From IMG/VR virus record IMGVR_UViG_3300035689_000007, positions 14,635 through 78,634 of that record: a DNA stretch of 64,000 nucleotides. The stretch is one strand, 5' to 3'. The notes under the pieces were generated by a model. That model searched no databases. It worked only from the letters and a program-made list of their open reading frames with translations, and had not been told where the DNA came from. How positions within the stretch are numbered: position 1 is the stretch's first letter; each line of letters begins with the position of its first letter. Below are positions 22,638 through 55,903 of this stretch, piece by piece. Source of the stretch: a virus. Position numbers and translations under genes: made by a program.

Positions 22638-22653
22638 AACTTACTCCTTATTT

Positions 22654-26913: not shown

Positions 26914-26915
26914 AG

Positions 26916-27770: not shown

Positions 27771-27772
27771 AA

Positions 27773-38500: not shown

Positions 38501-41492
38501 CATATTCTAGTTCTTCTGCTTCGTCCCATTTAGAAAACAATACTCCAGAATTCCACAAGTTATAATCTACACCGCTCATGTTATAATCTGGAGAAAATCT
38601 TAAAAATACAGCAAAACCACTAGATGTTGGAACATTACCAAAATTCAAATAACCATTAACACCAGAAATGCGAACAGCGGAGTCAAACGAATCAAGTATT
38701 TTTCCATATAATTCGTGACTATTATCGGCCCAATCTAAACTGGTGTAATCTCTTATAGCGGTGGGAAATAATGATTCATTATTAAATCTTAAACCAAGAT
38801 TTCTAACTAAACTAGAAGATAGATTTGCAGTAAACAAACCGCTTACAGTACTGGGAGCATCTTCCAAACTAGATAAAACATAATTATTGTGCGTATTGTT
38901 GAAATCATAATACCCAATAGTAAATGGTTGATCAAGTTGTGGATTACTAAAAGCAAAATCAAATGGAACAGGATCAAATGGGCCACCAAAAACATTACCG
39001 CTGCAACCGCGCCATCTTCTAGCATAATTTGTTTTTAGCGTCGTTTCAGAAGTTGAATATGCGTGTGGAATATTTTCTATTAGAGATAAAGGTGAATTTA
39101 AAATGTTGTATGGTGCGTCTACAGATTTTCTGGATGATGGATAAAGTCTATTTTGTCTTCTGGCTATTTCCCTACTAAGAAAACCGGCGGTTGATAGTGG
39201 AAGAGCGCCACCGGGTTTATACTTGACAATGAGATTTGCGCTAGCAATCGAAGCGCCACTAGGAATTGGATATATATCTATATATAAAGATTCAAAATAA
39301 CTACTCATAGAGTAGTCTTTAGACATGCCCAATTCTACTTTGTCTTTGTATATCTTTAGTGGTACAGTATACTTAGTAAATGAAGTGCTATTGACTAGTG
39401 GAGATTGAGTAATTAAATAGTGATCTCCAGAATCGTTGGGAACAATATTTTTTGAGAAATATGATCGTTTATCAGATAGAGATTCTGAAGAAATTCCAAG
39501 ATCATAAACGGGACCAAAACCAGATGTAGTTGGAATAGTTCCGCTACCAGTAATTGAATTTTGTAGAAATCCACCAACATCAGAAGTAATGAATAAAACT
39601 TTATCATCACTATAACCAACAACGTCTATTGGAAAGTCATTTGTTCCGATAGCTTTTTTAGCAACAATTTCTAAGCTAATATCTTCAATAATAAAGAAAG
39701 AATCATCTCCATAAACTAATTCTATATCAGCTTTTTTAAATGGATTTGTATACGTGTTACCAAACGAAAAGTCACCACCCCTTGGAAGTTTTACAGAAAA
39801 CGGTCTTTGATGCTCATATAGTAACTGAAGTTTGCCAGATGGTGCCGTATGAGAAACTATATTTCCATCAACATATAGATTAGTAAGTCTATCTATAAGT
39901 TCTAATTGGTGTTTGTCGTCGTTAACAGTATTATTGTATGTAAGATTGTCAAGATCTGGAGAGGTTTCCCAAACATTATTTAGTCCCGTTGGATAAATAT
40001 TATTATCGAATGTGTTTAGTAAAACCTTGGTTGGATATATAACTCTTTCTATCCAAGTTCCAGTACTTTGAACCCCTAAGAAGAATGGTAGTTCAGAATC
40101 TCTCAATATACCTTCCGCTCTACCTAGATTAGCAATTTCTATTGCTGAAATTCTAATAGCGTTAGTAGGTCTAATGTGATAATCTTGAGATTGTGCAGAT
40201 AATGGAGCGCCATCCACAGCAAGATAATCGTTTTCAGAAGTATTAACAAATTTGTCATTCAAATTGGCTTCAAAGGCAAAACCTTTGGCAAATTCTTCTG
40301 TAAATGGTTGATAAAAACAGTTGCCTGTAATGTCGAAACTTAACGTATATCCACTTGGTTCTCCGAGAATGGGATATTTTAATTTCCAAGTATTTAATGT
40401 TGCATAATTTATCTCTGGCTCGCTAACATATGTAATGTAATTAAATTGGTCTTTGTCTTCAAAGTTTGCCTCGCCACGAACTTGAAAATCTTTATATTTA
40501 ACAATCAAATTGCCAGAAGGATCTTCAAACTTAATATTTGTTATGTCGTATAATGTTGGCTGATCTGTTTCATAATTAAATGTTGGCGCGGCGGCGCGGA
40601 AAAAAAAGAAACTTTCTAGTGGAGTAATTTCTGGAGTATTAACAAAGCACTTATACTTGAATGTGCCTTTAGTATAAATAGACGATGGAGTAATATATGT
40701 TGAGTCATCGTCTGAAATAATATTTCCTACGCGAGAATCTTTAGTAATATTACCTAGACACACGCCCTCATTAATACTTTCAAATAGATTAACCGGCTTA
40801 ATTTTCTCATTAACAAGAAAAATATTATTATGTTCGACTGTAATATCTTGAATAGGAAATAATTTTTGTGTTGGCGTGAAATTATCAAATTGGTTTATTT
40901 TGTTAAAATGCCCATGTAATTTTTCAAAATATTTACTTTTAACAATACCAGAGCCAGATATTCTAGTCCTAAAATTATTAATAGGGCGATTAAGACTAGC
41001 TTTTAATTCAAATCTTGTAGATAGTCTAGATAGTTTAAGATTCCAAATACACTGTGGTCCTCTAGAGATAACTAATACAGAATTATTAGAGTCTAGTGGA
41101 TCATAAACACTACTTGGAATAGCATCCCATCCACCACTAATAATGCTTGGACTATTTATATTGATTAATTGAGCTGGTAGATTTGTGGGAGATCTACGTA
41201 TTAATAATTCGGATGATAATACTTTGATATTTCCAGAAACTTTAATAATTTTTGGAGCAAAGCTTGGAAAATTAGATACAGTATTAGCAAATAGAGAGCC
41301 AAATGTGGGTGTTGAATTAGTTCCAGACCCTCTCTTAAATCCAGAATATATTACACTTACATTAAGTTTACTTAGATTGCCAGTACCTCTTGATCTAACA
41401 AAAGGTTGTACTGTTTTTTTCAAAAACGCTTTGACTTTAGCGTCTGGCGCTATTTTTATTTTTAGTCTCGACGATCCATCACAAAGAAACAT
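29502..41492 (-). CDS. giant (3996 aa) adhesin-like virion protein with LamG domain and FG-GAP beta-propeller
   Basis: LamG-like region ~38180-38660 (FSKWD, IALTYN, LRLFTN, ISEIGI); seven FG-GAP-type repeats; ~15-aa shaft repeats. Confidence 0.75.
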   Translation of the reverse strand: MFLCDGSSRLKIKIAPDAKVKAFLKKTVQPFVRSRGTGNLSKLNVSVIYSGFKRGSGTNSTPTFGSLFANTVSNFPSFAPKIIKVSGNIKVLSSELLIRRSPTNLPAQLININSPSIISGGWDAIPSSVYDPLDSNNSVLVISRGPQCIWNLKLSRLSTRFELKASLNRPINNFRTRISGSGIVKSKYFEKLHGHFNKINQFDNFTPTQKLFPIQDITVEHNNIFLVNEKIKPVNLFESINEGVCLGNITKDSRVGNIISDDDSTYITPSSIYTKGTFKYKCFVNTPEITPLESFFFFRAAAPTFNYETDQPTLYDITNIKFEDPSGNLIVKYKDFQVRGEANFEDKDQFNYITYVSEPEINYATLNTWKLKYPILGEPSGYTLSFDITGNCFYQPFTEEFAKGFAFEANLNDKFVNTSENDYLAVDGAPLSAQSQDYHIRPTNAIRISAIEIANLGRAEGILRDSELPFFLGVQSTGTWIERVIYPTKVLLNTFDNNIYPTGLNNVWETSPDLDNLTYNNTVNDDKHQLELIDRLTNLYVDGNIVSHTAPSGKLQLLYEHQRPFSVKLPRGGDFSFGNTYTNPFKKADIELVYGDDSFFIIEDISLEIVAKKAIGTNDFPIDVVGYSDDKVLFITSDVGGFLQNSITGSGTIPTTSGFGPVYDLGISSESLSDKRSYFSKNIVPNDSGDHYLITQSPLVNSTSFTKYTVPLKIYKDKVELGMSKDYSMSSYFESLYIDIYPIPSGASIASANLIVKYKPGGALPLSTAGFLSREIARRQNRLYPSSRKSVDAPYNILNSPLSLIENIPHAYSTSETTLKTNYARRWRGCSGNVFGGPFDPVPFDFAFSNPQLDQPFTIGYYDFNNTHNNYVLSSLEDAPSTVSGLFTANLSSSLVRNLGLRFNNESLFPTAIRDYTSLDWADNSHELYGKILDSFDSAVRISGVNGYLNFGNVPTSSGFAVFLRFSPDYNMSGVDYNLWNSGVLFSKWDEAEELEYALGYKDGYLSAYAKDSNGNLIELQDSISYENYQYPLSIALTYNDNQSRKLRLFTNSEIAAIASGTNILCDESNEFVLSSGNSDLLFGYSSGSGIGINAFISEIGISTHNDTGGGNLVYNANPDSSKQQDNIELFFNTHLAHFCNVNDSHINDRNKLWQFIDEKTEDWKLGAFKYCSFGVAYDIMKFRNGKDYLYHNFYNDGKTYQDRTNLTLPNSIHLSGISYHSQVENDMLRFSLSGNEDRLYSLPPRLVKNLPRSYIVAEDSLIVNSVVQHECDSTINWPNGKTGAKLIVSLYTPSKESVLFPTKNFGLISRSTHYLNPKDCWNKIESKFKLGDLKDNESEPWAFFDKTITYKEFEENYFVKDINQMFVQYDVIYPSGTYNKSQIKLHSVDIELNGINQSDEINNNLPIYESGKAYQEAPLPLYEVGYVSAFNNQINIYTSGVTYIEQSGIMSLISSGVFNSNVSMPLYTIQVGNASTSNSNFGSLFGNNNPLGMSLFVEGGYDNEEDSIICYVNGLIENTISNSLNLFSYDDVNQPAVDQLNFMLLAGFPLSAFDISTEESIGLYVLGPNRTWEPTSANIALYINSRPKEENINSQFPLYLYHVKPISKRDNELESFKWDGTNFGKEISLLDNQFASVPAIDEIRGVQTICYGNCDTISTIKCQEDQLITHDTLWYDPECVNGGVVRPITVYTNPDVGAFGTNIPYSGHFYGIRKFSNLIPQAPYTITITGKTGTDKILQVPREMTEWEYGTNEDVAYSGIQLTPSVNSSGNKFGKSVTVLDDRVMIGCPYENIFDETNYEINNAGKIYVYRKNPEPSGYDWSNQLDKSNFVLEQEIVLPTGWRRDYFYKRNISFRDRYGNLLPYTGIGTNWIVGQEGRQLGYSLDSARRNNTDILIAGGPGAEWSRTFAPIQTTPVTIGLFVFNNELVSDPDNANWRQILDQLSDRDLVYRYFCDPSVKFDIKVILCEPMLGSNIGIGETSKDFLEPKPPFVSKYLTHRHFSYNVNTPEYQEREDVILQELKDIFHEVFPLTSSAIHSGIPPLLGIYIDDSRSLGSKSLGYNIPFRKGALDKFIDYYKDYSKNNGLVDFDGDPAEGFVNVTVDVDENWIAQSINCLLDLTDIETLQENNVQKLIANNLGSFNENAGEFNYPPPSGGSVYIFERENNGQFKVVQEIKSPVSYTNDTSDRFGHDVAISDDGKVIAIGSPYSPHSVQVFEYNENFNNQLLNSLYFITSFLQPRYYEEINNATFGESYDLYSEYLEKLPITESIANLNLETYNKFSEGLRFAYFKFLENLQIKRYNLIYEMGVPIGFDAWSDLWANYIPTPRLGYSVDINSDGSLIAIGSPTDSLGERDYTQTWFRYDIKSGQETAFGGEPWQWQNYTNAGAIRLLESRNYYPHNKKVVEYYKFGNLHELLSPPQDSGLFSFTMNNLYNSMGYTFSRTSFAEGLKIPEDAGLAFIITPAINAASDEIIDNIRDWLSLGDRHLVLVGNDPKWEANGAYFNSNNIINYILEELDVNMRIYAARNQYEALMQNTNTFYNVQNSFVPAKSTPAIAYPVPLRGSGVGDIRLYDTNISDLYICDKPPSGSSDPFSFDFERKRTYRELHDKCEMPIVHEGDLRSKYIDQCEIMTPRGPAWISYERNFGFQYGTHNIVDWGCEGEERGKNPNFNTKSEPVPILSAYEAIPKTIIVPGSAPTEELRSKLVGYDSSTSVRTTFGNAVYSGVAFIWSNDDSNYTELNYNINNTVSNSLFFDPSEYNGNDAVLQARSTISNQSATKLINIKPNVCMIASEQYSTTSKIVLIAATMYESRNILLSSAGDRNINLYFNLLATDADGNAKVAQVGGFTNRTSYTDGYNKSDIQAQLTNVGIDMGDLNVLTQDLYDISKGYTAAWIANTDNMPSSEDIQNIKRFLDMGNKTLIITYGQEPSLGDEISNNTTYTYNLDSSSMTSTISAYNVRSANVAKYICEQLGLSMSPLFLEGKNKYADRSDIRTDNIGQLTSSLSIAANTYLYDGLDENSSFASSNSYVGYGDGAVTVPYSDRPPYPVPNGFTHEFVPINNRNAINLAFFDAPVTDTEQFSIGVPKFNTGITKVSFTVPEKLEEHDDYNLFKLRFNILKESSLEISPINLVVGNCLASEFVNTSVLNQPIGPVGRNILLVDTDENNNVKQTYVSAGYTKELYDSLDLYVQIPSGQETLDMYFTHSASYPLQQNPKQLRTVRLLSVSGVRIPSNTIISTARWPIYETEVVTIPGTPDTSYTQLFNREISTDSSKYCISNNRICSNDPPEGYGTPGVDIADGPVVMAQTVYHQGGYFNGYNKSRITVISDPSLIQGRTILSEGGNTINPNLAWFLASLYPNTNFNTTRSGRQYETAFKIISPERSSPSRLVNAYPENSGLNYRFGQFTSNSLPATKYSDLEGKIEIAGKKPPQPTDPMLPLFNSDIGHFRIELSPPPPYTEEEKAALRQAWYIDNFNIVEQHYGSTSKIQDTYNGTLYRDAGIYSRIPPILRAIGKDHLDLDVFYSGYPGDLFGYSVKIHKDKVYVGAPFSPYNTEEITPWSTIIASGMQHGKEVGFNGGAGAVYLIEKVGNVGSGLGSVNLSKQKTTGIPWTVTRKFRPEEISVGFSGLTTSNSSTVIGNNNYSNDKLKNLAFVSDMFGYDIALNGDILAISAPCHRFENYSEDTPAPFIRKEFNEQFDIQQRIIHDLAIPSEREQYGASGTVVFNHGAVFTYENKINNWGSKTQEWTPIHKLVAQGPYARIQNSGENTFFGNAIAIDRARRVDGDYILAVGAMNHPFSTSGNVFDNIGSTYAFDGMLRSLRPAFSHPDTFIAGRVYGEYQKPSDYTTFTFKNDNNFDQKVLFNGIVLSNINGEIFIEASGQDKVPRGYVVHRPYIEHIRGSFLHGTPVYEDINLFVDGAPPFVSGSLSLVNYGPESNNVYNMMDLYTFNLLQSSGNMPLIASGLASPSGVMELYSSGIAKTDTILQLRTRGSL

Positions 41493-41501
41493 ATTTATTC
41501 C

Positions 41502-44500
41502 TTATCGACCAACTGTTGATGAAGACTTGCTTAAAGTACCACCTTGTCCAACTTTATATTTACTGATTTCTTTAGTTACAGCCTCAATGATTTGATTATT
41601 AGCATAATCTTTGATTGCCTTAAATATTCCACCATCCATTAGGTTGACAGTAACAGTAACAGGCGCTAATGTAATATTTAAACCTAATGAACTTAATCTA
41701 TCTATATTAGCTTGAAATGCACCCAAAAACGTTGTCAAAGATTGAGAAAAATTGCTTAATGCGGCTAAATCTATTGGTGGTTGTGCGTTACCATTTGCGG
41801 GCGTAGTATTAGTCGCTATAGTAGATAATACACTTTGTAGACCACCAATAGCACTAATAATACCATCTGAATTAAATGTTGGCATCATTTGTTGTGGACT
41901 AGCTCCAGAACTACTAGTATTTTGTGGTACTTGTGGAACATTGGTTACTGGTGGCGCAGGAGTTGTAGCGACGTTTGCTGGTGGAGTAGTACCAGTTTGA
42001 GATGGTGGAGTATAATTAGTATTTGCAGCTAATCTTGCTTGGAGCGCTGGGCTTCCAGAAACATTTGCAAGCAGAGCAGAAAATGGAGAACTTGGTGCAG
42101 GTTTAGACGCTTGTGCTTCTGGTTGAGCTTGAGCTTTTGGTTCTGGTGGTGGTGCAGCAGGCTGATCGGCTTTTGGCGCTTCAGCACCTTCTGCGGCTTT
42201 ACCAGCCTCGCCAGTTCTTTCTTTAACGTTTTGTACGGCTGCTTCCATTTGTTTCTTTGCTGCTTCTTCCAAAGCCCTAGCAGCATCTAATTGTAGCTTT
42301 GCTGCTAATTCTTGATTTTGTGCTGCTGGAACTAATTGTGCTGCTAAACCTCTAGCCTCTTCTTGAATTGCTTTTTCTTCAGCGGTTGTTCCTGCGGCAA
42401 CTTCTGCCATACCCTTGAGATCACCAGACATTCCAGTATTAGCCAAACCTGCTGCATAAGCGTTTTCTGTAACCTGATCTATATTTTGACCAAACACTTC
42501 TCTTACGCCAGCTTCTTTTTGTGCTTGTAATTGTTTTGTAGCCTCTCCAAAAGCTGTAAAACCAAATTGACTAGTTAATCTTGGATCGCCAACCGCCGCT
42601 GCTGCGGCTGCTCCAGCGCCAGCTTGTTTGTTTAAAAACTCTTCTATATTTCCACTAAGTAAAGAATCGATAGCATCTTTTTCAGCTTTGTTTTTAGCCT
42701 TAACAAGTTTTAGTTCTTGACGTTTAACATCAATTAATGCTCTAATGGTTTCTTGTTCTTTAGCTGCGAGGTCTGCTAGTCTTTGTTCTTGAGCTTCAAA
42801 TTCTGGATTAATTTGTTGTTGAGCGCCCCTGTCGCCACTTGCTGCCGACTTTCTAACAGCACCAAGTTCTTCCATTTTTGCTCTAGTTTCTGCACTTCTT
42901 TGAGCAAATTCAGCAGCACTGCCTGTCTGTAGACCACTAACACCAGCTTGTGCTGAATCAAGATTTGCTTTATCTAATATTGCTTGTTTTTGCATTTCTG
43001 GAGTGACTGCCGCCCCTCCAAATTCTTCCATAATTTTAGCAGCTTCCATCTGAACATCAATAGTTTTCTTTTGAGCTTCAATGTATTTATTTTCAAGATC
43101 TATTCTTTGTTTTTGTATTTTGAATAATTGTTCTTCAGATTCTTTAACCTTTTGTAAGGCTGGAAGAACTTGAGATAATGTCTGTTCTCCAAGTTCTCCA
43201 AGAGCGTTCTGTAATGGAGCAAAGTTACCATCAACAATTTGTTGCATATCGTCTTCACTGAGTTTTCCACCCTCGATAGCTTTTTTAATTCTCTCTTTAA
43301 CTTCTGGCGCAAAATCTTTTAGTTGATTAACAACTGCCTCTCCTAAAGCTTCACGTTTTTCATCTGCCGTGCCAGTACCACGGGCAACACCTCTCTCAAA
43401 ATCTGCTTTTAATTTTGCTTTTGCTTCTTCACTCGCTTGAGCGAAGAATTTTTGAGCTTGATTAACTGCGCCTAGATTTTCTTCAAATTTCTTTATTTGT
43501 GCTGGATCGCCACCAAGTTTACTTAGTTGTCCAGAAGCTTCTTGAACAGCGCTGTTCCAATCAGTATCAGAAATACCTTGGGCAGCATTTGTAATACCAG
43601 CTTCTAGTGTAGATATTGTTTGTCCAAGTCTTGATGTGCTACCATCTTGTGCTTCAATAAGATTATTAATTCCAACAGAGGCGGCGGAAGCTGCGGCATT
43701 TACATTATTAAATCCTAAGTTCATAGCATTAAAAGCTTCTCTTGTTCTTTGAGCTTCTTTAGCTAAATTATTAAATTCCTTCTCCATTCTTTGTAATTCG
43801 CTGTCTCTACCTTTCGCCTTGGCTTCATCTTGTTCTCTTTCTAATGTTGCAACGACATTAGTTCCTTGTTCTGCGTCTCTTTGCTTTAAGAGATTAAGGA
43901 CATCTTGAAAAGATCCGCCGGAATTAGCTGTTTGTCTTTGGATTAAACCTATTCCGGGTTTTGCGCTAGCAAGAACAGTTTTATCTAATTCTTTATTTGC
44001 TTTTTGTAATTCTTCTTGTTTTTGTACTTTTTGTTGTTTAACTTCTGCATTAGAATCGACAAATCCAAAACTTAGCCAAGCTAATGCTTCCCTCATATAA
44101 CTAAATGTATCTTCTGCTAATTCTTTTTGTAGTGCGCTTAAAGCTTCTTCATTTGCCATTCTTGCTTCAACAGCCGCTAATTGTGCAGAAGAAGCAGCAT
44201 TCAAAACATCAATAGCAGAAGCGGTGCCATTTCTAAATTCTTCCATTTTTTGTGAAGTAGCATCCTGTGCATCTTGGAATTTTTCAGTTGCTTTATTTGT
44301 TAAAGCCATAGCCTTGGCGTGTTTAATTATTATGTCGCCATCTACTTCTAAGCTAGCCGTCATTGCGCCAACACCAGCACCAATGATTGCTCCTGCCGCA
44401 GCACCAATAGTAGTTCCAATGACAGGAACAATAGACCCAACAGCAAGACCAATAGCAGCACCAGAAGCAGCACCAAGACCAACATTACCTAGTTCATCTC

Positions 44501-47500
44501 CAGTTGGTCTAACCATTCTTTCTTTGGCACCAACCTCTTCTTCGGCTTTTAACACAGCCGTATTAACATCTCCCTCTTTTATAGCTTTTTCTTTTTGCGC
44601 TTTAGCAGCTTCAGCAATAGAAGATTGCCATAATGCAAATGCTCCTATAGCGCCAAGAACTGCGGCAGCTAATAATACAAAAGGATTAGCCAATACTGCT
44701 GCTAAATTAGCAGATGTTTCAGCCACTTCTGAAGCAGTATTTGCTGTATTAGCTCCAGTTTCTGCGCCCTCTGTTATAGTATTTGCGGTATTGGCTGCTG
44801 CATTAACTTTAGCAGCAGAACTCATTAATCCTACATTAACTAGCAATCCTTTAAAACCATCAACAATGCCTCCAAGAGGTATTTGTTGTAATAAAAAGGC
44901 AACAGTAGAAAATTGTAAACCTAATTCTGAAATATTTTTCTTAAAATAATCCATTGATGTAGAATTTTCATCAATTGTTGGAGCAAGCATTGCTAATGCA
45001 GAAGTGACTGCACTAAATGCGGCAAAAGCGGCCATGCCATCTCCACCGCCTCTTCTTGGAGTTCCACCACCACCACCACCACCACCACCGCCAGCGCCGC
45101 CCCTATTTCCAGCATCAGATGCTCTATTAGATGGAAGTGGAGAACTTGCCCCTTGAACAGTATTGCGTAAATCTGATCTGGCTGAACGCTCTGCCCTTGT
45201 TATCGTGGCTCTACGTTCTAATATTTCTTGCCTAGATCTTTCTTCTCTAAAACCGCCGCCACCAACGTCTCTTGATTCAACTCTAGCTCTGTATTCTGGA
45301 TCTGTAGCTAATCTTCTACCTCGTAAAATTGCTTCTGTTTTTTCGCCACCCTTAGTAAATCCAGCTTCTTGTAATTGTTGTTTTTTAGCTTTAGCTGCGG
45401 CAGTCTTATCAGACATTTCTTTGCCGGTGCGAACATCAATGCGAGACGCAGATGCTCCACTTCTAATAGTTTTTCGAGCTTGATCAAAAGCTGCTTGAGC
45501 TTGAGCTTTAATTGCTTCTTTTAATCTTTCTCTTTCTTTTTGAATAGCGTCTGTAGCAGTAATACCTCTTCTAGCTAATTGTTCTGTACTAGTATTATAA
45601 GCTAATTCTTTATTTGTAGCAGATAAAATTCTCTGTTTTACATTAGCAATTTCTTGATCGATGTTTCTATCAACTTCACCACTAGATGAAACTGGAGATT
45701 TTGTAACATCTTTACTAGTTTTTGCGGATTCTTGTTTTACTTTAGTATCTTCTAACAAAGCTCTTCCATAAGCTTCTAATCTTTCTTGAACAATTACATG
45801 TTGTGCAGTATTACCATCTAAAGATGAAATATATTGACTAATTTCATCAATAATACCAAATTGAGTTAATGATCCAAGTTTATTAGCAGCGGCGTTGTCT
45901 TTAAGAGCCGTAATAAGTGGACCTCCACTAAAACCTATAACACCTTTAATTTGTTGACTTAAAGAAGCGTAGCCAGAACTTAATTCTTGATTAAATCCAG
46001 CAAAATTAGCTATACGTGAAGATAAATTTTTGGTAACTTTATCAAGAACTTTGAAAGTTGTGGATACACCAGTGAATATACTGGGATCAAAATCCACAAA
46101 CCCCTCACTACCAGATCCTAAAAATTGTGGCGGTTTACTTTTACCACCATTGGCAAATCTTTGAACACCAACTATGCCACCCTTTGCATATTTACCAACT
46201 TTATTCATACGGTTAAGAGAACCATAACCAATATTTTGAGCAGATTGTTTATTAATTACGAACTCACCGGGAGTCAACAATGCCGGAACAGTATCTGTGC
46301 CGACATTTCCACCAGTAGCAAATCGTTTTACTGATCGATCAGCCCTTGGACCCTTTGATCTCATTGAATCAAGTGCTGGTTGTTTGCTTGCGCCCTGAGT
46401 AAATATCATGTTTGCGGTGGGTATACCAAACAATCCACCAAGGTATTCAGCAGCGCCCTTAACTCTTTTAGATTTGCTGATAATACTAATTTTGCGAGGA
46501 TCTATTTGACCTGACTTAATTATAGCTTGTAGTTCTTTACCAAATTGAGTTAATGGAGAAGATTTCAAATCTTGTAATCTTTTTGCTTCATCTCTAAAAT
46601 ATGTTTGTAGAACAGATTGTTTTGCTTCTGGAGTTTTTGCTTTGGCGTATGCTAAATCACCAACTGTTCGTTTTAGAGTACGATCAATATCTACAGCGCC
46701 GCCGCCAGACTTTATTAACGCTTGAATAGCAGAACTTGGGTTTGGCAATATAGAACCAGATGCTTGTAATATATCATCAACCATTGGGGCTGTTGCCAAA
46801 CCACCGGCAGCAAATTTTCGAATTATTCCTCCTAAGAATTTTTTTTGTTTTCTAGCAGATACTCTTTGTTCAGCGGTTGATGCCTTTTTTCTATTTTCTA
46901 TATCTGAAGTAAATCCACCAACATTTTGTGATATTAGTTCATTGGCTAGTGTAGATCTAAATCCTTCTACAAGTTTATTTGTACCTTTTTTTGCTAAACT
47001 TCCAAGAGAATCTTCAGAAAAAGTTCTTTTGGCGTCTGATATTAAAGATGAATCTAAATTAAATATTTGACCAGCAGACCCAAGACCAGAAGGAAAATCG
47101 AAAGTGTCATTTGGATTAATTTTATTTTCAGTAAATGGAGAATTAGACAAACCATTAACAAAAGCTTCAAAAATTCCACCTTCTATTTGTTCAATATTAG
47201 CTCTATTTAAAGCAGCACTAAACTTACCAGAATCAAATGGTGGATTATTTTTAAATGTCTGAGAAGCAAAAGTATTTGAAAAATTTGCTAACGATGTATT
47301 GATACCATTTTTATATTGTTCAGAAACTGTTTTAGATAATGAGCCAGATGTTATACCTATGGACACACTGTTAAATTTTCCAATTAATTCTTGAGTTAAA
47401 GTTTTAGTGGCAGATTTTCCAAGACCAGAAGTAACGGAGTTTAGCATAGAATTAATGCCAGATTTATCTATTCCTGCTACAGTTTTTCTCATTATCCCTT

Positions 47501-49199
47501 CTGGTTGTAAAAACACACCACCAATATCTAATTCTTTGTCTTGAGGATCTTTATCTCCAGCGGCACGAATAACAGCTTGAATTTGTTGATCATTTATCTT
47601 GAATGTAGAACTGACACCATCTGATTCTAATTTTTCCTGTAAATTTTTTCTCGTTCCCTGTTTTCCACCCTTTTGGAATCTATTCTCATTCATAGCAGCA
47701 AGATTACTAGCACCTAATCTATTGACGCTACTCTTTCTAATAACAAATTCGCCGGGTTGTAACATTGCTGGAACAGTATCTCTATTGCCACTGCCGGGAA
47801 CCATACCACCCCTAGCAAAATAATGAACTTGACCTCCGCGAGACATTCTTCTACCACCACCACCGCCACCTAATCCGGCTGAAATACCACCTAAAAATCC
47901 ACCAATACCTTGTGCCGCTTTAATGCTAGCAAATGTTAATAATAATGGTATAACGGGTTTTAACGAATCTGCAAGTTTAATTAGTGCGCTCGCTAATTTC
48001 AAAGTAGTATCAGCAAGAACTTGGAAAGTGCCAGTTTGTGTAATACTTCTAATTAGTGCTAGAAATTCTTCTTTAACTTTGATAATTCTTATAGCAAGAG
48101 ATTGTTGTGCAGTAGCAACGTCATTAGCCAAAGAACCCGCGCCCTCTTGTGCGACATTTAAAGCTTCTTGAGCAACAGCAAACTGTTGTAAGAGTGGAAT
48201 AACTTTACCAATCTGTCTAAAGCCACCAAGCTCTTCTGCAACGCGAATAAATGTAATATCGCCCTGTTCTAATCCACCAAGGGCTTCGCTCAATCTTTTA
48301 ATGGCTTCAAACGGTCCAACGAATTTACCCTGTAAATCTACAAGCTCTACACCAAACTGTTTTAAGAATTCAATTGTTTTGGGGCGTTGGATACGTGTAA
48401 AAATTGTACGTAAACCAGTACCAATACTTTCTGCACTTTCTCGCGTAGTCGCTCTTACGCTGGTGAACAATGCCAAGAGTTCATTAAGACTACCGCCAGA
48501 AGATTTAAACACACCGCCCGTTCTACGAACAACGTCGATCAAGTCAGATGATTCAACAGCAAACGCCGCTGAAACAGCGTTAACTGAACCAAGTTGTTGT
48601 TCTAAGGCAGCGGCACCAGCTCTAAACTGATTAAAAATAGCCACAGCGCCTTCTGTGGTTTCTGTAATATCATCGAACGTTGGCGACAATTGAGTTTGTG
48701 CTAAAGTTCTAAGTGCTATTTCTGTATCTTTGGCAGTTAAACCAGCTTGTGCTAAAATCGTTGAAACATTTATCAAACTAGAAGAACTAACACCTAAATT
48801 AGTAGCTAAAGATGTAATTGTCTCACTAAGAGAAGAAAGTTGTGTGATAGTCTTGCCAGTGACCTGACTTATACGAACTAACTCTCTTTCAAATTTTATA
48901 GCTTCATCTACGGCGCTGGAAATTGTATTAGTAAAAAGACTAACAGCCCTAGTTGCTACGGCTAGGGCTGAAAATCTTCTTACTGATGTTACGAATGTTC
49001 TGCCTAGTCTTTCTGACGCTACAGTAGCTCTATCAGTAGACTGAGTTAATTGATCTATTTCAGATCTAGCTCTTGCAGCATTATTTACCTGTATATTAAC
49101 TCTAACATTATCAAGTTGACTTTGGATTTGTCTAACAACTTGATTAACATTTGAGGGCGCTTGTATATTTAACTGTGCTGTGAGTACAAATCTTGACAT
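41502..49199 (-). CDS. tail tape measure protein (2565 aa) with internal cargo-like domains
   Basis: N-terminal PhageMin_Tail-like region (AIKFERELVRISQVTG, LAQAGL, ESAESIGTGLRTIFTRI); two lambda gpH-like FAxGG..GEFVI modules; hydrophobic/Gly-zipper segments; long Ala/Gln/Glu helical regions. Confidence 0.92.
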   Translation of the reverse strand: MSRFVLTAQLNIQAPSNVNQVVRQIQSQLDNVRVNIQVNNAARARSEIDQLTQSTDRATVASERLGRTFVTSVRRFSALAVATRAVSLFTNTISSAVDEAIKFERELVRISQVTGKTITQLSSLSETITSLATNLGVSSSSLINVSTILAQAGLTAKDTEIALRTLAQTQLSPTFDDITETTEGAVAIFNQFRAGAAALEQQLGSVNAVSAAFAVESSDLIDVVRRTGGVFKSSGGSLNELLALFTSVRATTRESAESIGTGLRTIFTRIQRPKTIEFLKQFGVELVDLQGKFVGPFEAIKRLSEALGGLEQGDITFIRVAEELGGFRQIGKVIPLLQQFAVAQEALNVAQEGAGSLANDVATAQQSLAIRIIKVKEEFLALIRSITQTGTFQVLADTTLKLASALIKLADSLKPVIPLLLTFASIKAAQGIGGFLGGISAGLGGGGGGRRMSRGGQVHYFARGGMVPGSGNRDTVPAMLQPGEFVIRKSSVNRLGASNLAAMNENRFQKGGKQGTRKNLQEKLESDGVSSTFKINDQQIQAVIRAAGDKDPQDKELDIGGVFLQPEGIMRKTVAGIDKSGINSMLNSVTSGLGKSATKTLTQELIGKFNSVSIGITSGSLSKTVSEQYKNGINTSLANFSNTFASQTFKNNPPFDSGKFSAALNRANIEQIEGGIFEAFVNGLSNSPFTENKINPNDTFDFPSGLGSAGQIFNLDSSLISDAKRTFSEDSLGSLAKKGTNKLVEGFRSTLANELISQNVGGFTSDIENRKKASTAEQRVSARKQKKFLGGIIRKFAAGGLATAPMVDDILQASGSILPNPSSAIQALIKSGGGAVDIDRTLKRTVGDLAYAKAKTPEAKQSVLQTYFRDEAKRLQDLKSSPLTQFGKELQAIIKSGQIDPRKISIISKSKRVKGAAEYLGGLFGIPTANMIFTQGASKQPALDSMRSKGPRADRSVKRFATGGNVGTDTVPALLTPGEFVINKQSAQNIGYGSLNRMNKVGKYAKGGIVGVQRFANGGKSKPPQFLGSGSEGFVDFDPSIFTGVSTTFKVLDKVTKNLSSRIANFAGFNQELSSGYASLSQQIKGVIGFSGGPLITALKDNAAANKLGSLTQFGIIDEISQYISSLDGNTAQHVIVQERLEAYGRALLEDTKVKQESAKTSKDVTKSPVSSSGEVDRNIDQEIANVKQRILSATNKELAYNTSTEQLARRGITATDAIQKERERLKEAIKAQAQAAFDQARKTIRSGASASRIDVRTGKEMSDKTAAAKAKKQQLQEAGFTKGGEKTEAILRGRRLATDPEYRARVESRDVGGGGFREERSRQEILERRATITRAERSARSDLRNTVQGASSPLPSNRASDAGNRGGAGGGGGGGGGGTPRRGGGDGMAAFAAFSAVTSALAMLAPTIDENSTSMDYFKKNISELGLQFSTVAFLLQQIPLGGIVDGFKGLLVNVGLMSSAAKVNAAANTANTITEGAETGANTANTASEVAETSANLAAVLANPFVLLAAAVLGAIGAFALWQSSIAEAAKAQKEKAIKEGDVNTAVLKAEEEVGAKERMVRPTGDELGNVGLGAASGAAIGLAVGSIVPVIGTTIGAAAGAIIGAGVGAMTASLEVDGDIIIKHAKAMALTNKATEKFQDAQDATSQKMEEFRNGTASAIDVLNAASSAQLAAVEARMANEEALSALQKELAEDTFSYMREALAWLSFGFVDSNAEVKQQKVQKQEELQKANKELDKTVLASAKPGIGLIQRQTANSGGSFQDVLNLLKQRDAEQGTNVVATLEREQDEAKAKGRDSELQRMEKEFNNLAKEAQRTREAFNAMNLGFNNVNAAASAASVGINNLIEAQDGSTSRLGQTISTLEAGITNAAQGISDTDWNSAVQEASGQLSKLGGDPAQIKKFEENLGAVNQAQKFFAQASEEAKAKLKADFERGVARGTGTADEKREALGEAVVNQLKDFAPEVKERIKKAIEGGKLSEDDMQQIVDGNFAPLQNALGELGEQTLSQVLPALQKVKESEEQLFKIQKQRIDLENKYIEAQKKTIDVQMEAAKIMEEFGGAAVTPEMQKQAILDKANLDSAQAGVSGLQTGSAAEFAQRSAETRAKMEELGAVRKSAASGDRGAQQQINPEFEAQEQRLADLAAKEQETIRALIDVKRQELKLVKAKNKAEKDAIDSLLSGNIEEFLNKQAGAGAAAAAAVGDPRLTSQFGFTAFGEATKQLQAQKEAGVREVFGQNIDQVTENAYAAGLANTGMSGDLKGMAEVAAGTTAEEKAIQEEARGLAAQLVPAAQNQELAAKLQLDAARALEEAAKKQMEAAVQNVKERTGEAGKAAEGAEAPKADQPAAPPPEPKAQAQPEAQASKPAPSSPFSALLANVSGSPALQARLAANTNYTPPSQTGTTPPANVATTPAPPVTNVPQVPQNTSSSGASPQQMMPTFNSDGIISAIGGLQSVLSTIATNTTPANGNAQPPIDLAALSNFSQSLTTFLGAFQANIDRLSSLGLNITLAPVTVTVNLMDGGIFKAIKDYANNQIIEAVTKEISKYKVGQGGTLSKSSSTVGR

Positions 49200-49231: not shown

Positions 49232-50083
49232 TTATAGATCTTCCTCTTCTTTAGCAGCTTTTTTCTTCTTAGGTTTTTCTTCGGGAGTAACATGGATATC
49301 ATCTTCATAGTCGGCTTGAATTAAGATCTGACCGCTATCTGATAATAAGTTGCCATCCCTATCTATGCGTTGACCTTTATCATTAATAAGCCAACCCTTA
49401 TCGTTGACTCTAGTACCGTCTACGTCTACCTTGTTACCCTCTGTATCGACCAGAGAAAGTTCTTCGTCTACTAAGTTAAACTTTTTAAGGAACTGATTTT
49501 CTGGTAGATTTTCTTCATAAGATTTATCTAGATTATAGATCATTTCACCAAGAGTCGCGGCAGCGGTGAATGCTATTTCGTCGTCTGCCTTTTCTTCATA
49601 ATCTGCTAAAGTACTATACACCTTTTCTCCATCAGAATAATATGTACAATTTGCTACTAAAAAGTTGAATTTAGCATTATCTGATAAACCTTCAGCAGTA
49701 TTAGATTCTAAGCTAATCTTTTCAGAGATTAATTCTCTAAGTTGATTTCTTAGTCTACGTATCTGAAGAGCCTTTTCTTTGCCTTCAGATACTTTTAATT
49801 TTCTACCATTAACACCTAGGGCAAGTTCTCTTTCAAGTCTATTAATTTCAGAACTAATACGACCCTGTTCTTGCTCCTTCTGATCGTTCCATATATTATT
49901 TTTTCTCATGAAGTCTTGTAGTGTTAATTTAGTGAACAAGCCTTCTTTGATAGATTCTGTCCAAACTTTTACACCAATTTTTTGAGCTTTGGTCATAAGA
50001 ATGGCAGATGGTTTTTTAACAACGATTTTGACCTTAGAACCATCCTCTAATTCCACTTCTACTTCTTTCTGTTTTTCCTTCAT
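49232..50083 (-). CDS. probable tail assembly chaperone
   Basis: Immediately upstream of TMP, charged helical protein, AGGAG RBS. Confidence 0.5.
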   Translation of the reverse strand: MKEKQKEVEVELEDGSKVKIVVKKPSAILMTKAQKIGVKVWTESIKEGLFTKLTLQDFMRKNNIWNDQKEQEQGRISSEINRLERELALGVNGRKLKVSEGKEKALQIRRLRNQLRELISEKISLESNTAEGLSDNAKFNFLVANCTYYSDGEKVYSTLADYEEKADDEIAFTAAATLGEMIYNLDKSYEENLPENQFLKKFNLVDEELSLVDTEGNKVDVDGTRVNDKGWLINDKGQRIDRDGNLLSDSGQILIQADYEDDIHVTPEEKPKKKKAAKEEEDL

Positions 50084-50406
50084 TTTTTATCTCCTAGTAT
50101 AGGTTTCACGGGCATTTCAATTTGAAATCTTAGTAATTCCACATCATATTGAGCCAACTCAGCATCAATATTTCTCATTTGATAATTTCCTTTATCTAAT
50201 ATTTCCGATCTTAGTCTAAAAAATAATTCTTTCATTTCTTCACAGTGGGGAGAATTTTCATTCCATAAAAATCCTAGATGTTCCTCTACAGAGCTTATAG
50301 CCCCGATCATAGTTGTCTGTATTCGTTTTTTAATACTATTGGATAATCTATCCTTAGAATCTTCCTTATATTTACTGTATCGTTTTGCAGAGTATTTTTT
50401 GTCCAT
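50080..50406 (-). CDS. hypothetical protein (tail assembly region)
   Basis: 108-aa coupled ORF. Confidence 0.6.
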   Translation of the reverse strand: MDKKYSAKRYSKYKEDSKDRLSNSIKKRIQTTMIGAISSVEEHLGFLWNENSPHCEEMKELFFRLRSEILDKGNYQMRNIDAELAQYDVELLRFQIEMPVKPILGDKK

Positions 50407-50408
50407 AA

Positions 50409-51449
50409 TTACTTGTTCCTTTTTGTGTGATTTTTAAACTGCTCATTGATCTGCTGCCGTCCTTCCATTTGTATGTCTGGAAGATTTTCATAACTTACAA
50501 CGCCATTTTTTCTTATAGCCTCAATTCTTTGTTTTTTAATCCATTTAGCTTGATCTGTGTTAAGTTCATCAATTTCTTTGGGACTAATATTTTTTCTATT
50601 GGTAACAAATAGTTCTTTAGATGAATTTAATTTTTCATTCTTAGATATTGCTTCTAATTCTTTTTGATTTTTTTCCTTTGCTCTCTTTTTCTTTTGAGCA
50701 ATAAACCAACCATCTAATAAATCGTCATCTTCAATAACGTCGTTTGATGGTGGATCTATAGACTCTTGAATATTATCATAGGTTTGTGACCATAAGACTA
50801 AATTTTTTTGATTGAGTGTTACGTCTACATTATCTGCATTAAAAAATAGCTTGAATTGACCCTTAGTATTTGTAATCCATAGAGATCTCCAAGGCTCATT
50901 CCGCGCTAAATATCTTATTGTATTATCAGATATAACTGAATTTTGATATTGTTCAACTATACTTTCTATTATTTTTTCTATGTGGTACAGTTTTTCTTTT
51001 TTATATGTTGTTTGTGTTAAAATCCAAGTTAATCTATGCATTTCCGCATATGATTCACAAGTATTAGAATAATATGCATTTTTTTTATGCAATTTTTCTG
51101 CTAAAATCCTTTCTATAGATCTTATTGTAGATTTTCCATATTTCAAAAAGTATGTATCTTTTCGATTTTCGTATAATTTAAACTTTGCATCCTCTAAATC
51201 TTTTGGTAATTGTTCAAGCTCTTCTTCGTCTGTTTTTTGCCAAATGCCAATAGCTTTCATCCAAGATTCAGTTTCCTCTACGGTCATTATATCTTCATTT
51301 TGAGCTTCTAAAAATGCATTTTGGTATACTTCATAAGATTCGATTACTTGTTCTATTGTTGGTGGATATATGCAAAGTGTGGGATTTTTAGTATAAACAA
51401 CTCCAGATCTAATTGAAGAAATAAGAAACTCCCGCAGACGATAATCCAT
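50409..51449 (-). CDS. hypothetical protein, probable tail assembly chaperone
   Basis: 346 aa between tail tube and TMP; WRSLW...WSQTYDNI...DDDLLDGW. Confidence 0.45.
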   Translation of the reverse strand: MDYRLREFLISSIRSGVVYTKNPTLCIYPPTIEQVIESYEVYQNAFLEAQNEDIMTVEETESWMKAIGIWQKTDEEELEQLPKDLEDAKFKLYENRKDTYFLKYGKSTIRSIERILAEKLHKKNAYYSNTCESYAEMHRLTWILTQTTYKKEKLYHIEKIIESIVEQYQNSVISDNTIRYLARNEPWRSLWITNTKGQFKLFFNADNVDVTLNQKNLVLWSQTYDNIQESIDPPSNDVIEDDDLLDGWFIAQKKKRAKEKNQKELEAISKNEKLNSSKELFVTNRKNISPKEIDELNTDQAKWIKKQRIEAIRKNGVVSYENLPDIQMEGRQQINEQFKNHTKRNK

Positions 51450-51472
51450 ATTAATCTCATCTACGGGAGTTC
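51426..51472 (-). promoter_or_regulatory. 16-bp mRNA hairpin covering RBS and start of the 346-aa gene; possible attenuator or terminator
   Basis: GAACUCCCGUAGAUGA / UCGUCUGCGGGAGUUU with G-U pairs valid only on the coding strand, AUG in the loop, followed by U-rich tract. Confidence 0.65.
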
Positions 51473-51474
51473 AC
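51457..51474 (-). other. mini upstream ORF GTG-AAC-TCC-CGT-AGA-TGA (MNSRR*)
   Basis: TAAGGA SD 6 nt upstream (51481-51486); coincides with the 5' arm of the hairpin. Confidence 0.45.
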
Positions 51475-51504
51475 TTTGTTTCCTTAAAAATCCAATTTAA
51501 TTAT

Positions 51505-52407
51505 TTATGCTATCTCAAAGAAGTTATAACCAACATATGAATATGTAATAGTTGCATTACCACCACCAGCATCTCCACCAGAATAATTACTACTAGTAAG
51601 TCTTGCTGAACTGCCCATACTAAATGTAAGACCGGCAGCAGTAACTGATACTGTTTGGTCTGATGTGATATCATTTTGATTAGTGTCTACAAAGTTTAAT
51701 CCAGTAACATTATCTGTGGCTAAGTATTCCATTTCAGCAGTAACTTCTACTGGAAAACCAGCAGCTTTATGATATGGAGTCTTACTGCCAAGTTCAAATA
51801 AATCTTCTCTAGAAAAATCTAGACTAAAAGAAGCTGACTGTAATTTAGACTTACCGCCGGGAGAAGCTGCTGTAATATCTTGTCGTCTAATAACCGCTGC
51901 GTCTGCTGTTGGATCTGTCACTACAGCATTACCAGTTGATGATCCTTGAATTGTTGGTGGGCTGTCCGTGACGCCCCACTGTAAGTTATTGCCAACTAAC
52001 GTAACGCTTTCTGTCATAGCTCCGTCGATTTGGAAATTAACAGAATAACTACTTACATATAGACCTGTAGCTTGAAGAAAATTTGATGCAGTATAAGGTG
52101 TAGAGCCATCATCAGCTACAGACATATATAAGTTTGGTCTAGCGTTACCAACATCTGTAACAGCGCCGCCAAGGGTATTCCAAACAGAGTCTCCATCTTT
52201 TAAGATGACTCTTTCAAGTGTAATTTCAACATTTGGTACACCTTCTAGGTTTTGATAAATATCAAGTCTACCTAGTTCGAAAATTTGTTCAAAGTCTACG
52301 GTGCCATTAACACCAACTGATTGCCAGCCAGAACTTAGTCCCGCACCAGCGTTTGCTGGAACAGATAGAGAAACGTTCTGAACTGCATAGAATATTCTAT
52401 TTGACAT
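51505..52407 (-). CDS. major tail tube protein
   Basis: 300 aa Ser/Thr/Gly/Val-rich; duplicated EQIFELG / EDLFELG motifs; position between neck genes and TMP; strong RBS and own promoter motif. Confidence 0.75.
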   Translation of the reverse strand: MSNRIFYAVQNVSLSVPANAGAGLSSGWQSVGVNGTVDFEQIFELGRLDIYQNLEGVPNVEITLERVILKDGDSVWNTLGGAVTDVGNARPNLYMSVADDGSTPYTASNFLQATGLYVSSYSVNFQIDGAMTESVTLVGNNLQWGVTDSPPTIQGSSTGNAVVTDPTADAAVIRRQDITAASPGGKSKLQSASFSLDFSREDLFELGSKTPYHKAAGFPVEVTAEMEYLATDNVTGLNFVDTNQNDITSDQTVSVTAAGLTFSMGSSARLTSSNYSGGDAGGGNATITYSYVGYNFFEIA

Positions 52408-52439
52408 GAATCTCTCCCTTAATGAAGTATAATTTTGTC

Positions 52440-52469
52440 TAGATCTAGATCTATCACTTTATACACAAA
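52440..52469 (-). promoter_or_regulatory. putative late promoter TTTGTGTATAA with downstream palindrome TAGATCTAGATCTA
   Basis: Same 11-mer + 5 nt + TAGA-palindrome as at 18975-19002. Confidence 0.6.
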
Positions 52470-53432
52470 TTAGATTTGTGTTGTGATTATTTCGGTTGTC
52501 ATACGCACTATTCCAGCGTACAAATTTGAGTTAAGTATTTCCATTCCTTGGACTTTAGTGTTTCTTAATAACGCTGTGCCATTAAAATATGCATTAATTA
52601 AATCTGGATATCTTTTTGCATTTGGGTTAGGATATCCCATAAAATTCAATGGAAAATCATTGCTAGATGCCATAGAATTAGTATTAAATAGTCCTATTAT
52701 TTTATCATTTTGCAAAGAAACAATATCTACTAATTTATTTCTAGTTAAATCATCTTCTGCAATACAATGGAATAAAACGTCAGTATATATAAATTGACCA
52801 CTAGGGCCAAGTTGATAGGGTTTAAATGTTCTATTTGGTACTATTTCTATGGCAATTGCTGGCAATTGTACCCTCATTTCCGCTGGAAGTTCGTAATCTC
52901 CCTTTGTGTTATCATTAAAAAAGGAACTTTTATCAAGAGTTCTATACTGAATTTCGCGTATCCAAGGTAAATTACTTGCATAAATTACGTTTATATACTT
53001 ATAACTATGTTCAGCTTGTACTTTGCTACCAGTGGGAATAGGATTATCAAATATTACCCTACCATTATAGTAATCTACCTTATGGGAATATATACCGCTT
53101 GTATTAGATGGATAAAAGGTGTCGTTAACATAAATACCAGATATTCCTGGTATATTTGGGTTATTGCCGACAAGTGGGGCTGGACTATATGGAACACCGC
53201 TTTGCCACACCCAGTTTTTTCTAAAACCTTCCCAAGCAGAACCCTGTGGATAATTATCATTAGATGATAACTTTAATAAGGAATAGTCTTGAGATCTAGG
53301 AGAAAGTTCACCCAGCGTTGCATTGAAGTAATTACCTTTTTCTAACAAACCCCAATCAAAAAATTCTACAAGATTATCTTGTAGCTCATTATTTAGCGTG
53401 GTAGAAAAAACACTATTAAATCCGTGTAGCAT
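52470..53432 (-). CDS. tail terminator/completion-like protein
   Basis: C-terminal QLPAIAIE...YQLG...DVLFHCIAE...RNKLVD pattern; position just upstream of tail tube. Confidence 0.55.
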   Translation of the reverse strand: MLHGFNSVFSTTLNNELQDNLVEFFDWGLLEKGNYFNATLGELSPRSQDYSLLKLSSNDNYPQGSAWEGFRKNWVWQSGVPYSPAPLVGNNPNIPGISGIYVNDTFYPSNTSGIYSHKVDYYNGRVIFDNPIPTGSKVQAEHSYKYINVIYASNLPWIREIQYRTLDKSSFFNDNTKGDYELPAEMRVQLPAIAIEIVPNRTFKPYQLGPSGQFIYTDVLFHCIAEDDLTRNKLVDIVSLQNDKIIGLFNTNSMASSNDFPLNFMGYPNPNAKRYPDLINAYFNGTALLRNTKVQGMEILNSNLYAGIVRMTTEIITTQI

Positions 53433-53434
53433 AA

Positions 53435-54061
53435 TTACCTCAGTGCATCTTGTAAGATTAGTGCTATTTCTTTTTCCTGTCTTCTACCAATTAATGCTCT
53501 AGTAATAAAATTGTCATCTGACGTTCCAGAATATTGTGGAGGCACTCTAAAAAATCCACCAACTTTCATATTTCCAAGTCCAGATCGACCCAAACCGGCT
53601 TTAGGGTTGTATTCATAATTAGTAACAATAGCTTCATCACCCCTTTGTAAAAGCCACTGTAACCAGTGCAAATCTCCATTTTCATACACTGTGTGACCCT
53701 CTGGAAGAGACAGCAAATTAGCAAAATCAGATGGCTGAAAATACACTATAACACCGCCACTTGTTAAAGTATTGTTAAATAGGACTATATCTACGCCTAC
53801 AGACGAAACAACCGCCGAATGTATAGCATTGAACGCGATTCTTTCATCTCCAGATAGTATTCCAAAAGCTCCAGATAAAAGACCATTTGCTAATGCCATC
53901 ATCTCATCTTGAGATGTAATCCATTTACTAGCCAGATTTCTCACTTTATTGGTAATATTTTGTTTTTGAGTTTTAATTTTTTTATTGATGTATGAGGATG
54001 AAGCATTATTGATTTTTTTAGAAAAAGACTCAAGATTATCTAAAAGCTTGATAGTTATCAT
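53435..54061 (-). CDS. neck/tail-completion protein (HK97 gp10-like position)
   Basis: LHWLQWLL..G, GLGRSG, C-terminal NFITRA; ATGA overlap with upstream gene. Confidence 0.5.
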   Translation of the reverse strand: MITIKLLDNLESFSKKINNASSSYINKKIKTQKQNITNKVRNLASKWITSQDEMMALANGLLSGAFGILSGDERIAFNAIHSAVVSSVGVDIVLFNNTLTSGGVIVYFQPSDFANLLSLPEGHTVYENGDLHWLQWLLQRGDEAIVTNYEYNPKAGLGRSGLGNMKVGGFFRVPPQYSGTSDDNFITRALIGRRQEKEIALILQDALR

Positions 54062-54540
54062 ATTCTTTTCCAAAAACATGCAAAATATCTTTTGTGTTTC
54101 AAGCCCATAGGTATGTGTTCTCCTACTCTTTCAAATCTCATTTCTTTATAGCCCTTAATATTATCATGAACAATAAGACATTTAGCGGCTAATACTTTTG
54201 GTAAATCAGACATATATCCAATAGTTTGTATAGAAGAATCTGGAGCAACTATACCAGAAGATAGCTGAATCCACTGTTTTGAATCCCAGTATATTTTGAG
54301 AACTATATCGGTCAGTACTTCTATTTCTTTAATAGAAACATTGCCCCTATTTCTATCCCCCAAACCTCTACGATGATCATTGATTGAATTAATAGTTGGT
54401 AAATTGTTGTTAGGATTGTAGTTAATTTCTTCTTTTTTTTCTATAGATACTAACTGACAAGTAGATCCAAATATATCAAAAGTTGAATCTATAACTTCAA
54501 AATATTTATCTATAACAGCTTGTGATATATTAATTGACAT
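54058..54540 (-). CDS. head-closure/adaptor-like protein
   Basis: 160 aa, FGSTCQL, C-terminal PMGL...YFACFWKR; synteny. Confidence 0.5.
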   Translation of the reverse strand: MSINISQAVIDKYFEVIDSTFDIFGSTCQLVSIEKKEEINYNPNNNLPTINSINDHRRGLGDRNRGNVSIKEIEVLTDIVLKIYWDSKQWIQLSSGIVAPDSSIQTIGYMSDLPKVLAAKCLIVHDNIKGYKEMRFERVGEHIPMGLKHKRYFACFWKRI

Positions 54541-55888: not shown

Positions 55889-55903
55889 TATTTATCTCCT
55901 TTA

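Follow-up and report, generated by a model that had tools for sequence, protein, structure and literature searches.

Modules, joints and exchanged domains in the giant tape measure protein of an IMG/VR phage

We have analyzed a 64,000-nt stretch of viral DNA (positions 14,635 to 78,634 of the record IMGVR_UViG_3300035689_000007; hereafter the window), in which a single open reading frame (ORF) on the minus strand, 41502-49199, encodes, by its profile matches, a tape measure protein (TMP) of 2565 amino acids (aa). The assembly of this uncultured phage is one contig of 78,634 bp with a GC content of 34%, and this protein (P0001) holds all the motifs and segments under study. Comparison with its relatives shows that copies of a module also present in lambda gpH, together with short (K/R)[FY]AxGG joints, punctuate the proteins of this family, and that recombination has exchanged, reordered and inserted domains between them. 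The features of the gene are the following (window coordinates, all on the minus strand).

41502-49199, minus: ORF of the tape measure protein, 2565 aa (PF10145, E 3e-24; PHROG tape-measure families 28, 4211, 1533 and 167)
48264-48824, minus: PhageMin_Tail domain (PF10145), aa 126-312, within the conserved N-terminal unit, aa 1-450
47847-47942, minus: tract that is first hydrophobic and then rich in glycine, aa 420-451, immediately ahead of module 1 (read from the letters)
47643-47846, minus: module 1, aa 452-519, with MSRGG, FARGG, the core DTVPAMLQPGEFVI and a closing FQKGG (profile, 85.6 bits)
46767-47708, minus: recently exchanged tract, aa 498-811, with 2 of 942 nt different from the TMP gene of IMGVR_UViG_3300042507_002118
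46839-47642, minus: segment A, aa 520-787, with the PD-(D/E)xK-like core G674, F677, E678 ... D701 ... D722-A-K724 (alignment of relatives)
46800-46838, minus: double joint FLGG/FAAGG, KKFLGGIIRKFAAGG, aa 788-800 (equivalent joints flank inserted domains in relatives)
46335-46799, minus: segment B, aa 801-955, predicted alpha/beta, with D808-D809, D837-x-D839-x-T841, S908-K909-S910 and K939 (model and invariant columns)
46134-46334, minus: module 2, aa 956-1022, with FATGG, the core DTVPALLTPGEFVI and the closing YAKGG and FANGG (profile, 89.0 bits)
44364-45038, minus: hydrophobic sequence resembling glycine zippers, in three stretches (aa 1388-1410, 1496-1529 and 1573-1612) that follow the cassette zone (hydropathy)

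An earlier note made from the letters alone had called the protein a TMP carrying a cluster of eight glycine motifs and two internal, duplicated gpH-like modules, and these calls were borne out. PF10145 scored 86.5 bits against a gathering cut-off of 33.2, and the four PHROG tape-measure families matched at E 7e-23 to 1e-8. All eight motifs were recovered at the positions that the note had given on the minus strand: MSRGG at aa 452 (nt 47846), FARGG at 461 (47819), FQKGG at 508 (47678), FLGG at 788 (46838), FAAGG at 796 (46814), FATGG at 960 (46322), YAKGG at 1004 (46190) and FANGG at 1015 (46157). Between aa 452 and 1020 the pattern [FYM]xxGG occurs seven times, where 0.30 (whole-protein shuffle) or 0.58 (region shuffle) would be expected, and none of 20,000 shuffles reached that count; for [FY]AxGG, five were seen against 0.14 expected. 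The basic residues said to precede most motifs are there as well, with K or R before six of the seven five-letter motifs and also before FLGG.

A profile built on 401 modules taken from relatives found exactly two modules in the protein, at aa 455-519 and aa 955-1022; a degenerate third copy was searched for and ruled out, since the profile returned none even at E 100. The resemblance to gpH was likewise recovered (E 9.9e-5). Modules 1 and 2 are distinct paralogues, each 65-85% conserved across relatives that are otherwise far more diverged. Folded as a monomer, module 2 had a predicted local distance difference test (pLDDT) score below 50, and a three-copy complex prediction scored 0.01, a value with no bearing either way on self-association.

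Exchange, reordering and insertion of domains

The TMP (P0003) of IMGVR_UViG_3300042507_002118 (L001) has only ~52% protein identity to the window protein in the N-terminal unit, yet the two genes are identical at 940 of 942 nt over aa 498-811. Third-codon-position identity was 1.00 in the tract, 0.30-0.57 in the N-terminal unit and 0.67-0.87 in segment B, and the remainder of L001 shares with the window only short patches of 81-93% identity. This pattern indicates that two distantly related phages, which presumably shared a host, exchanged the tract very recently by homologous recombination. The left junction lies 10 aa before FQKGG, in the tail of module 1, and the right one 12 aa after FAAGG. 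A second relative, P0004, was compared at the protein level: its identity to the window protein is 100% as far as aa 507, immediately ahead of FQKGG, and 100% once more from aa 795 (KFAAGG) onward; between these points, where it has a different A, identity is ~20%. What was swapped in the window protein is, judging by these alignments, one divergent allele for another of the same domain type. The motifs had been proposed as recombination joints, and this was found to be correct in part: the exchange junctions fall within conserved sequence that surrounds the motifs and do not coincide with the GG.

A similar concentration of mosaicism in host-interaction proteins has been described by Smug et al., 2023 (PMC10684548), who flagged TMPs as mosaic by sequence. 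Their survey of phage protein-fragment shuffling confirmed no genuine recent mosaic event in a TMP, in contrast to the present case, where one is documented at the nucleotide level. A 942-nt near-identical tract inside an otherwise diverged TMP gene is precisely the type of event that the survey could not confirm.

We have compared 119 relatives (120 family members in the case of the A pattern) from a metagenomic family of more than 2000 proteins. The domain maps are based on profiles; single-linkage clustering of the motif-delimited segments was dropped because nearly everything merged into one cluster. The general layout is N-m-{A, B, X in varied order/number}-m-[~1000-1300 aa]-m-{optional second zone}-m-[~95 aa], with m for a module (two to six per protein) and X for unassigned segments. 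The N-terminal unit (aa 1-450) was present in 116 of the 119 (median identity 66%), and this unit, both modules and B are at ~66-70% identity among them. Between these conserved parts the variants include A-B (as in the window protein), X-B, A alone, B-A, two A copies, and A-B with a 223-aa insert. P0005 carries two A-type domains, and in P0022, P0080 and P0101 B stands before A, the reverse of the window order. The 223-aa insert, found in P0026 between B and a module, is an ADP-ribosyltransferase (PF03496), and P0030 has another PF03496 domain between a joint and B; both are above the cut-off, and they are flanked by joints of the QKFAQGG and QQFASGG type. Actually, joints recur at every domain boundary, including those of the inserted ADP-ribosyltransferases. 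In the window TMP itself Pfam recognised no effector or enzyme domain.

The expectation that segments between motifs would vary over conserved flanks was thus confirmed at the DNA level and across the 119 relatives. The further suggestion that the segments are swappable, unrelated cargo did not survive the comparison: B is present in 104 of the 119 relatives and an A-type signature in 98 of the 120 family members, so both are core domains and not optional, unrelated cargo.

Segments A and B

The call of two globular enzyme-like domains, one nuclease-like and one HAD-like, held for B, which has a globular HAD-like model, and only in part for A, where what we have found is a conserved sequence pattern. 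Across divergent relatives, G674 and E678 of segment A are invariant, F677, D701, A723 and K724 are conserved in at least 90%, and position 722 is D or E. The pattern GxxFE...FDF...(D/E)AK was found in 98 of the 120 family members and in none of 600 shuffles, and the order E...D...(D/E)xK is typical of PD-(D/E)xK nucleases. Outside this core the segment is hypervariable. BLAST detected A in 21-35 of the 119 relatives and an iterated profile in 48; that the pattern is present in 98 of 120 despite so few BLAST matches indicates a universal yet hypervariable domain. Only 56 relatives of A were found among 1.84 billion representative proteins, all of them TMPs or TMP fragments. No match to A was obtained in PDB sequences, from the single sequence or from a profile, nor in Pfam at E up to 10, and the ESM Atlas gave no usable match. 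A model of module 1 plus A, from a 16-row alignment, had a pLDDT of 48.9 and was unusable, its Foldseek matches being only noise. We consider A to have a nuclease-like pattern and to be a candidate of the PD-(D/E)xK type.

Segment B was modelled with a pLDDT of ~90 over aa 820-955. Its top Foldseek matches were HAD enzymes, all weak (E 4e-3 to 0.1), with AphA first (E 4e-3, probability 0.99) and phosphoserine phosphatase among the others, and its top VIA matches were class C acid phosphatases (Z 6.5-6.8), with CheY-like receivers tied at Z 6.0-6.4. After a hydrophobic strand B carries HAD motif I (DxDx[TV]) as GGGAV-D837-I-D839-R-T841; the DxDxT columns were invariant in 24 aligned sequences, and 92 of 105 B domains carry DxDxT. 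A weak fold match and the invariant motif thereby back the HAD-like call. Motifs II and III may be represented by S908 and K909 (or K939), which are invariant. D808-D809, ahead of motif I, are nearly invariant, and their position could reflect a permuted HAD or a CheY-like order. Going by its conserved columns, the residue set of B is that of phospho-aspartyl enzymes. No Pfam family matched B at E up to 10, hence no curated HAD model; no usable match was found among the ESM Atlas named clusters, and no stand-alone relatives of B of 85-272 aa were found.

The module in lambda gpH and other tape measure proteins

The module profile matched residues 731-786 of lambda gpH with 26 bits. In a search of PDB sequences (n=177,635) the only significant matches were lambda gpH 732-784 (the E value given above) and gp16, the TMP of mycobacteriophage Douge (E 8.6e-5). 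As in the window protein, in gpH a hydrophobic then glycine-rich tract (~aa 690-722) directly precedes a module of the form [FY]AxGG - GEFV core - YAxGG, and most relatives of the window protein also end, like gpH, in a module plus ~95 aa. In contrast, gpH has a single copy near its C-terminus and no known enzymatic domain, whereas here two copies in the N-terminal 40% of the protein bracket folded domains. The C-terminal ~120 aa of the window TMP have no module, in contrast to most relatives; the C-terminal copy is also missing in its closest relatives. The lambda copy is located within the fragment that is removed during tail maturation, and the cut that yields gpH* and gpHC has been placed in the glycine-rich tract, its exact site not being known (PMC12617516). 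Pfam leaves the module uncovered, since PF09718 ends at gpH residue 701, ahead of it, and the module is not resolved in the lambda structures nor in any tail structure checked.

The Douge TMP (PDB 8ZDO, chain S) resembles the window protein in having two internal copies (aa 964-1010 and 1412-1458), ~450 aa apart; these are not described in its paper, which resolves only residues 1658-1699. The module was found besides in annotated TMPs of phages of Gordonia, Mycobacterium, Rhodococcus, Shewanella, Nitrincola and others. In Streptomyces phage VWB gp47 and cyanomyophage S-SCSM1 gp213, genes in the TMP position that are labelled lysins in their records, it stands shortly upstream of an SLT or glucosaminidase domain. 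Among prokaryote genome contigs, 322 stretches from many phyla encode relatives, and nearly all among the matches listed cover the module only. In one of these loci (L092, 3001-3810) the module match spans ~810 nt, yet the TMP ORF ends at 3309, and ~30 Burkholderiales and Lysobacterales loci resemble it in this span; a second module-like piece thus seems to lie in the next small downstream gene of these prophages.

The profile matches identify both modules as copies of a TMP element that is old and spread over the TMPs of lambda, actinophages, cyanomyophages and many prophages. Internal duplicated copies are therefore not unique to the phage studied here, and we have found no published description of them. 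The gpH-type module is a TMP element without a name and with a wide range, which takes in lambda, actinophages, cyanomyophages and hundreds of prophages; in lambda it adjoins the maturation cut, of which neither the site nor the mechanism has yet been established. A family in which it recurs and fences domains offers a natural system for telling apart its possible roles in cleavage, in docking or in nothing more than recombination.

Possible roles of the domain slot and surroundings of the gene

The interpretation that we favor, with a probability of roughly 60%, is that the zone between the modules is a domain slot of a giant TMP, whose exchangeable domains A and B ride in the tail and act early in infection. 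The layout runs from the N-terminal PF10145 unit through the glycine-rich tract, module 1, A, the FLGG/FAAGG joint, B and module 2, and ~1500 aa of helical, membrane-type ruler come after it. Homologous recombination between co-infecting phages has swapped, reordered and inserted domains between modules and joints. A, with its nuclease-like pattern, and B, HAD-type phosphatase-like, would travel in the tail lumen as parts of the TMP, leave the tail before the DNA and act early on phosphoester substrates of host or phage, and an arms race may drive the fast evolution of A. The three hydrophobic stretches (aa 1388-1612) would place a membrane between the N-terminal third and the C-terminal ruler, an arrangement that fits cytoplasmic delivery; the match of this region to Gly-zipper_Omp was weak (E 0.0013, under the Pfam cut-off). 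From the recent exchange of domains at the fences among related phages it follows that the tail probably carries exchangeable proteins into the host. A role in anti-defence or host takeover is more speculative, its best support being the ADP-ribosyltransferases in the same slot of relatives. There is precedent for a virion-delivered enzyme in T4 Alt, which is injected with the DNA (PMC5512222), and T5 pb2 is cut after R1127, a cut that separates its enzymatic domain (PMC10038345).

Several observations weigh against this delivery of enzymes from the slot. Just two exchange events have been mapped at residue level. A gave no usable fold (pLDDT 49), and its comparison by hhalign with E. coli Mrr yielded nothing (probability 0.1, no match). 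The fold matches of B are weak, its VIA Z of 6.8 lying inside the range that the tool calls common and tied with CheY-like receivers, and where HAD enzymes canonically carry the acidic motif IV, after the last strand, B has no acidic pair. No Pfam, NCBI-type or PDB-sequence match backs an enzyme assignment of either segment. Three or six globular domains of 150-270 aa would be hard to fit, folded, in the lumen of a tail tube. Finally, A and B are confined to TMPs, and so their part in the tail or in the injection channel could be structural and not enzymatic.

This last point leads to the possibility, which we consider rather improbable, that A and B have no catalytic role and serve in the injection channel or in tail assembly, perhaps by binding the DNA end, a chaperone, or a host factor of the inner membrane or periplasm, the variation of A being selected by host factors or by defences that sense TMPs. 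Besides the restriction to TMPs, the hypervariability of A beyond its short core and the lack of matches to enzyme-family hidden Markov models are in its favor, and membrane defences, SNIPE among them, are known to target TMPs (bioRxiv 10.1101/2025.11.03.685801). It leaves unexplained why the invariant residues are of active-site type (acidic, Lys and Thr), as in the DxDxT of B and the E...D...(D/E)xK of A, and why relatives hold a Pfam-recognised ADP-ribosyltransferase in the same slot. It is very unlikely that the motif cluster is only a relic, produced by tandem duplication of a gpH-type module and without any present role, in which the variable segments would be neutral filler for tail length. 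Tail length is set by TMP length and duplications are common in TMPs, and members of this family do have two to six modules; but modules 1 and 2 are distinct paralogues that stay 65-85% conserved while other parts diverge, B is folded and conserved, and there are joints at every domain boundary, those around the inserted ADP-ribosyltransferases included.

The motifs could also be processing sites of a polyprotein, the TMP being cut at or beside (K/R)[FY]AxGG during maturation or after ejection, which would free A, B and the ADP-ribosyltransferases of relatives. We consider this unlikely. The lambda cut does fall in the glycine-rich tract directly preceding the module (PMC12617516), basic residues precede six of the seven motifs, the modules are predicted to be disordered as monomers, and the new N-terminus of T5 pb2 after R1127, AEGGMMYPG...MGEHGTEVV, loosely recalls R-FAxGG-xVPG...PGEFV. 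However, the T5 resemblance is not significant, neither the TMP nor its scanned neighbours yielded a peptidase domain, and a structural or recombination role explains the conservation of the motifs equally well. A fuller version, more doubtful still, is that by analogy with T5 pb2 (R1127|AEGG) the chain would be severed behind the basic residue of every joint, and A, B and the ADP-ribosyltransferases would be set free in the host cytoplasm just ahead of the DNA, the gpH-type module being a universal signal for processing and docking; if so, the module would also identify the cleavage determinant of lambda gpH. In T5 (L117) the mapped cleavage site within pb2 aa 1120-1160 reads ...SFVPR|AEGGMMYPG...MGEHGTEVV. 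As a carrier of the module pb2 was rejected, with no match to the module profile and scores below zero.

Returning to the domain slot as we propose it, enzyme-type domains inside a ruler protein have been found in T5 pb2 (peptidase), VWB gp47 (SLT), S-SCSM1 gp213 (glucosaminidase) and, as motifs, in mycobacteriophage TMPs, and in those TMPs, as here, ejection into the host envelope would be expected. The known inserts are cell-wall hydrolases, in contrast to the HAD-like domain, the PD-(D/E)xK-like pattern and the ADP-ribosyltransferases of this family, which differs also from the TMPs of T5, VWB and S-SCSM1 in having several slots, each bounded by a joint. The polyvalent proteins and the MuF- and Alt-type effectors (Iyer et al., 2017; PMC5512222) are similar in carrying several enzyme domains per virion polypeptide, in being shuffled and in their proposed role in early invasion. 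They differ from the TMP described here in that they come from the head and in many cases have a partner peptidase for processing, which was not found for this TMP; TMPs go unmentioned in that work. TMP-embedded lysins, the processing of lambda and T5 TMPs, head-delivered polyvalent effectors and phage protein mosaicism are already published. We found no account in the literature of a TMP in which modules fence off an exchangeable slot of enzyme-like, non-lytic domains. TMPs are known for cell-wall hydrolases, not for a bounded exchangeable slot of phosphoester-type enzymes or ADP-ribosyltransferases. If delivery does occur, the slot could be used for engineering phages that inject chosen proteins.

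The genes around the TMP are poorly characterized. Among those scanned at 49232-56884 and 19005-29500 (both minus strand) we found no PHROG or Pfam family with the exception of one weak tail-fibre match. This near-absence indicates a poorly charted phage lineage with an essentially uncharted virion module, and it leaves the support of gene order for a tail function weak. The scanned neighbours without families include proteins of 1210, 1426 and 1545 aa. Directly downstream of the TMP, at 29502-41492 on the minus strand, is a gene for a 3996-aa protein whose sole Pfam match is to FG-GAP repeats (E 2.6e-15), probably the giant tail-tip protein or adhesin of the phage. Within the TMP, a glycine-rich segment with a run of 12 Gly (aa 1367-1385, ~45044-45101, minus) precedes the first hydrophobic stretch, and a long low-complexity linker rich in Pro, Gln, Thr and Ala (aa ~2301-2440, 41880-42299, minus) is located just before the C-terminal ~120 aa.

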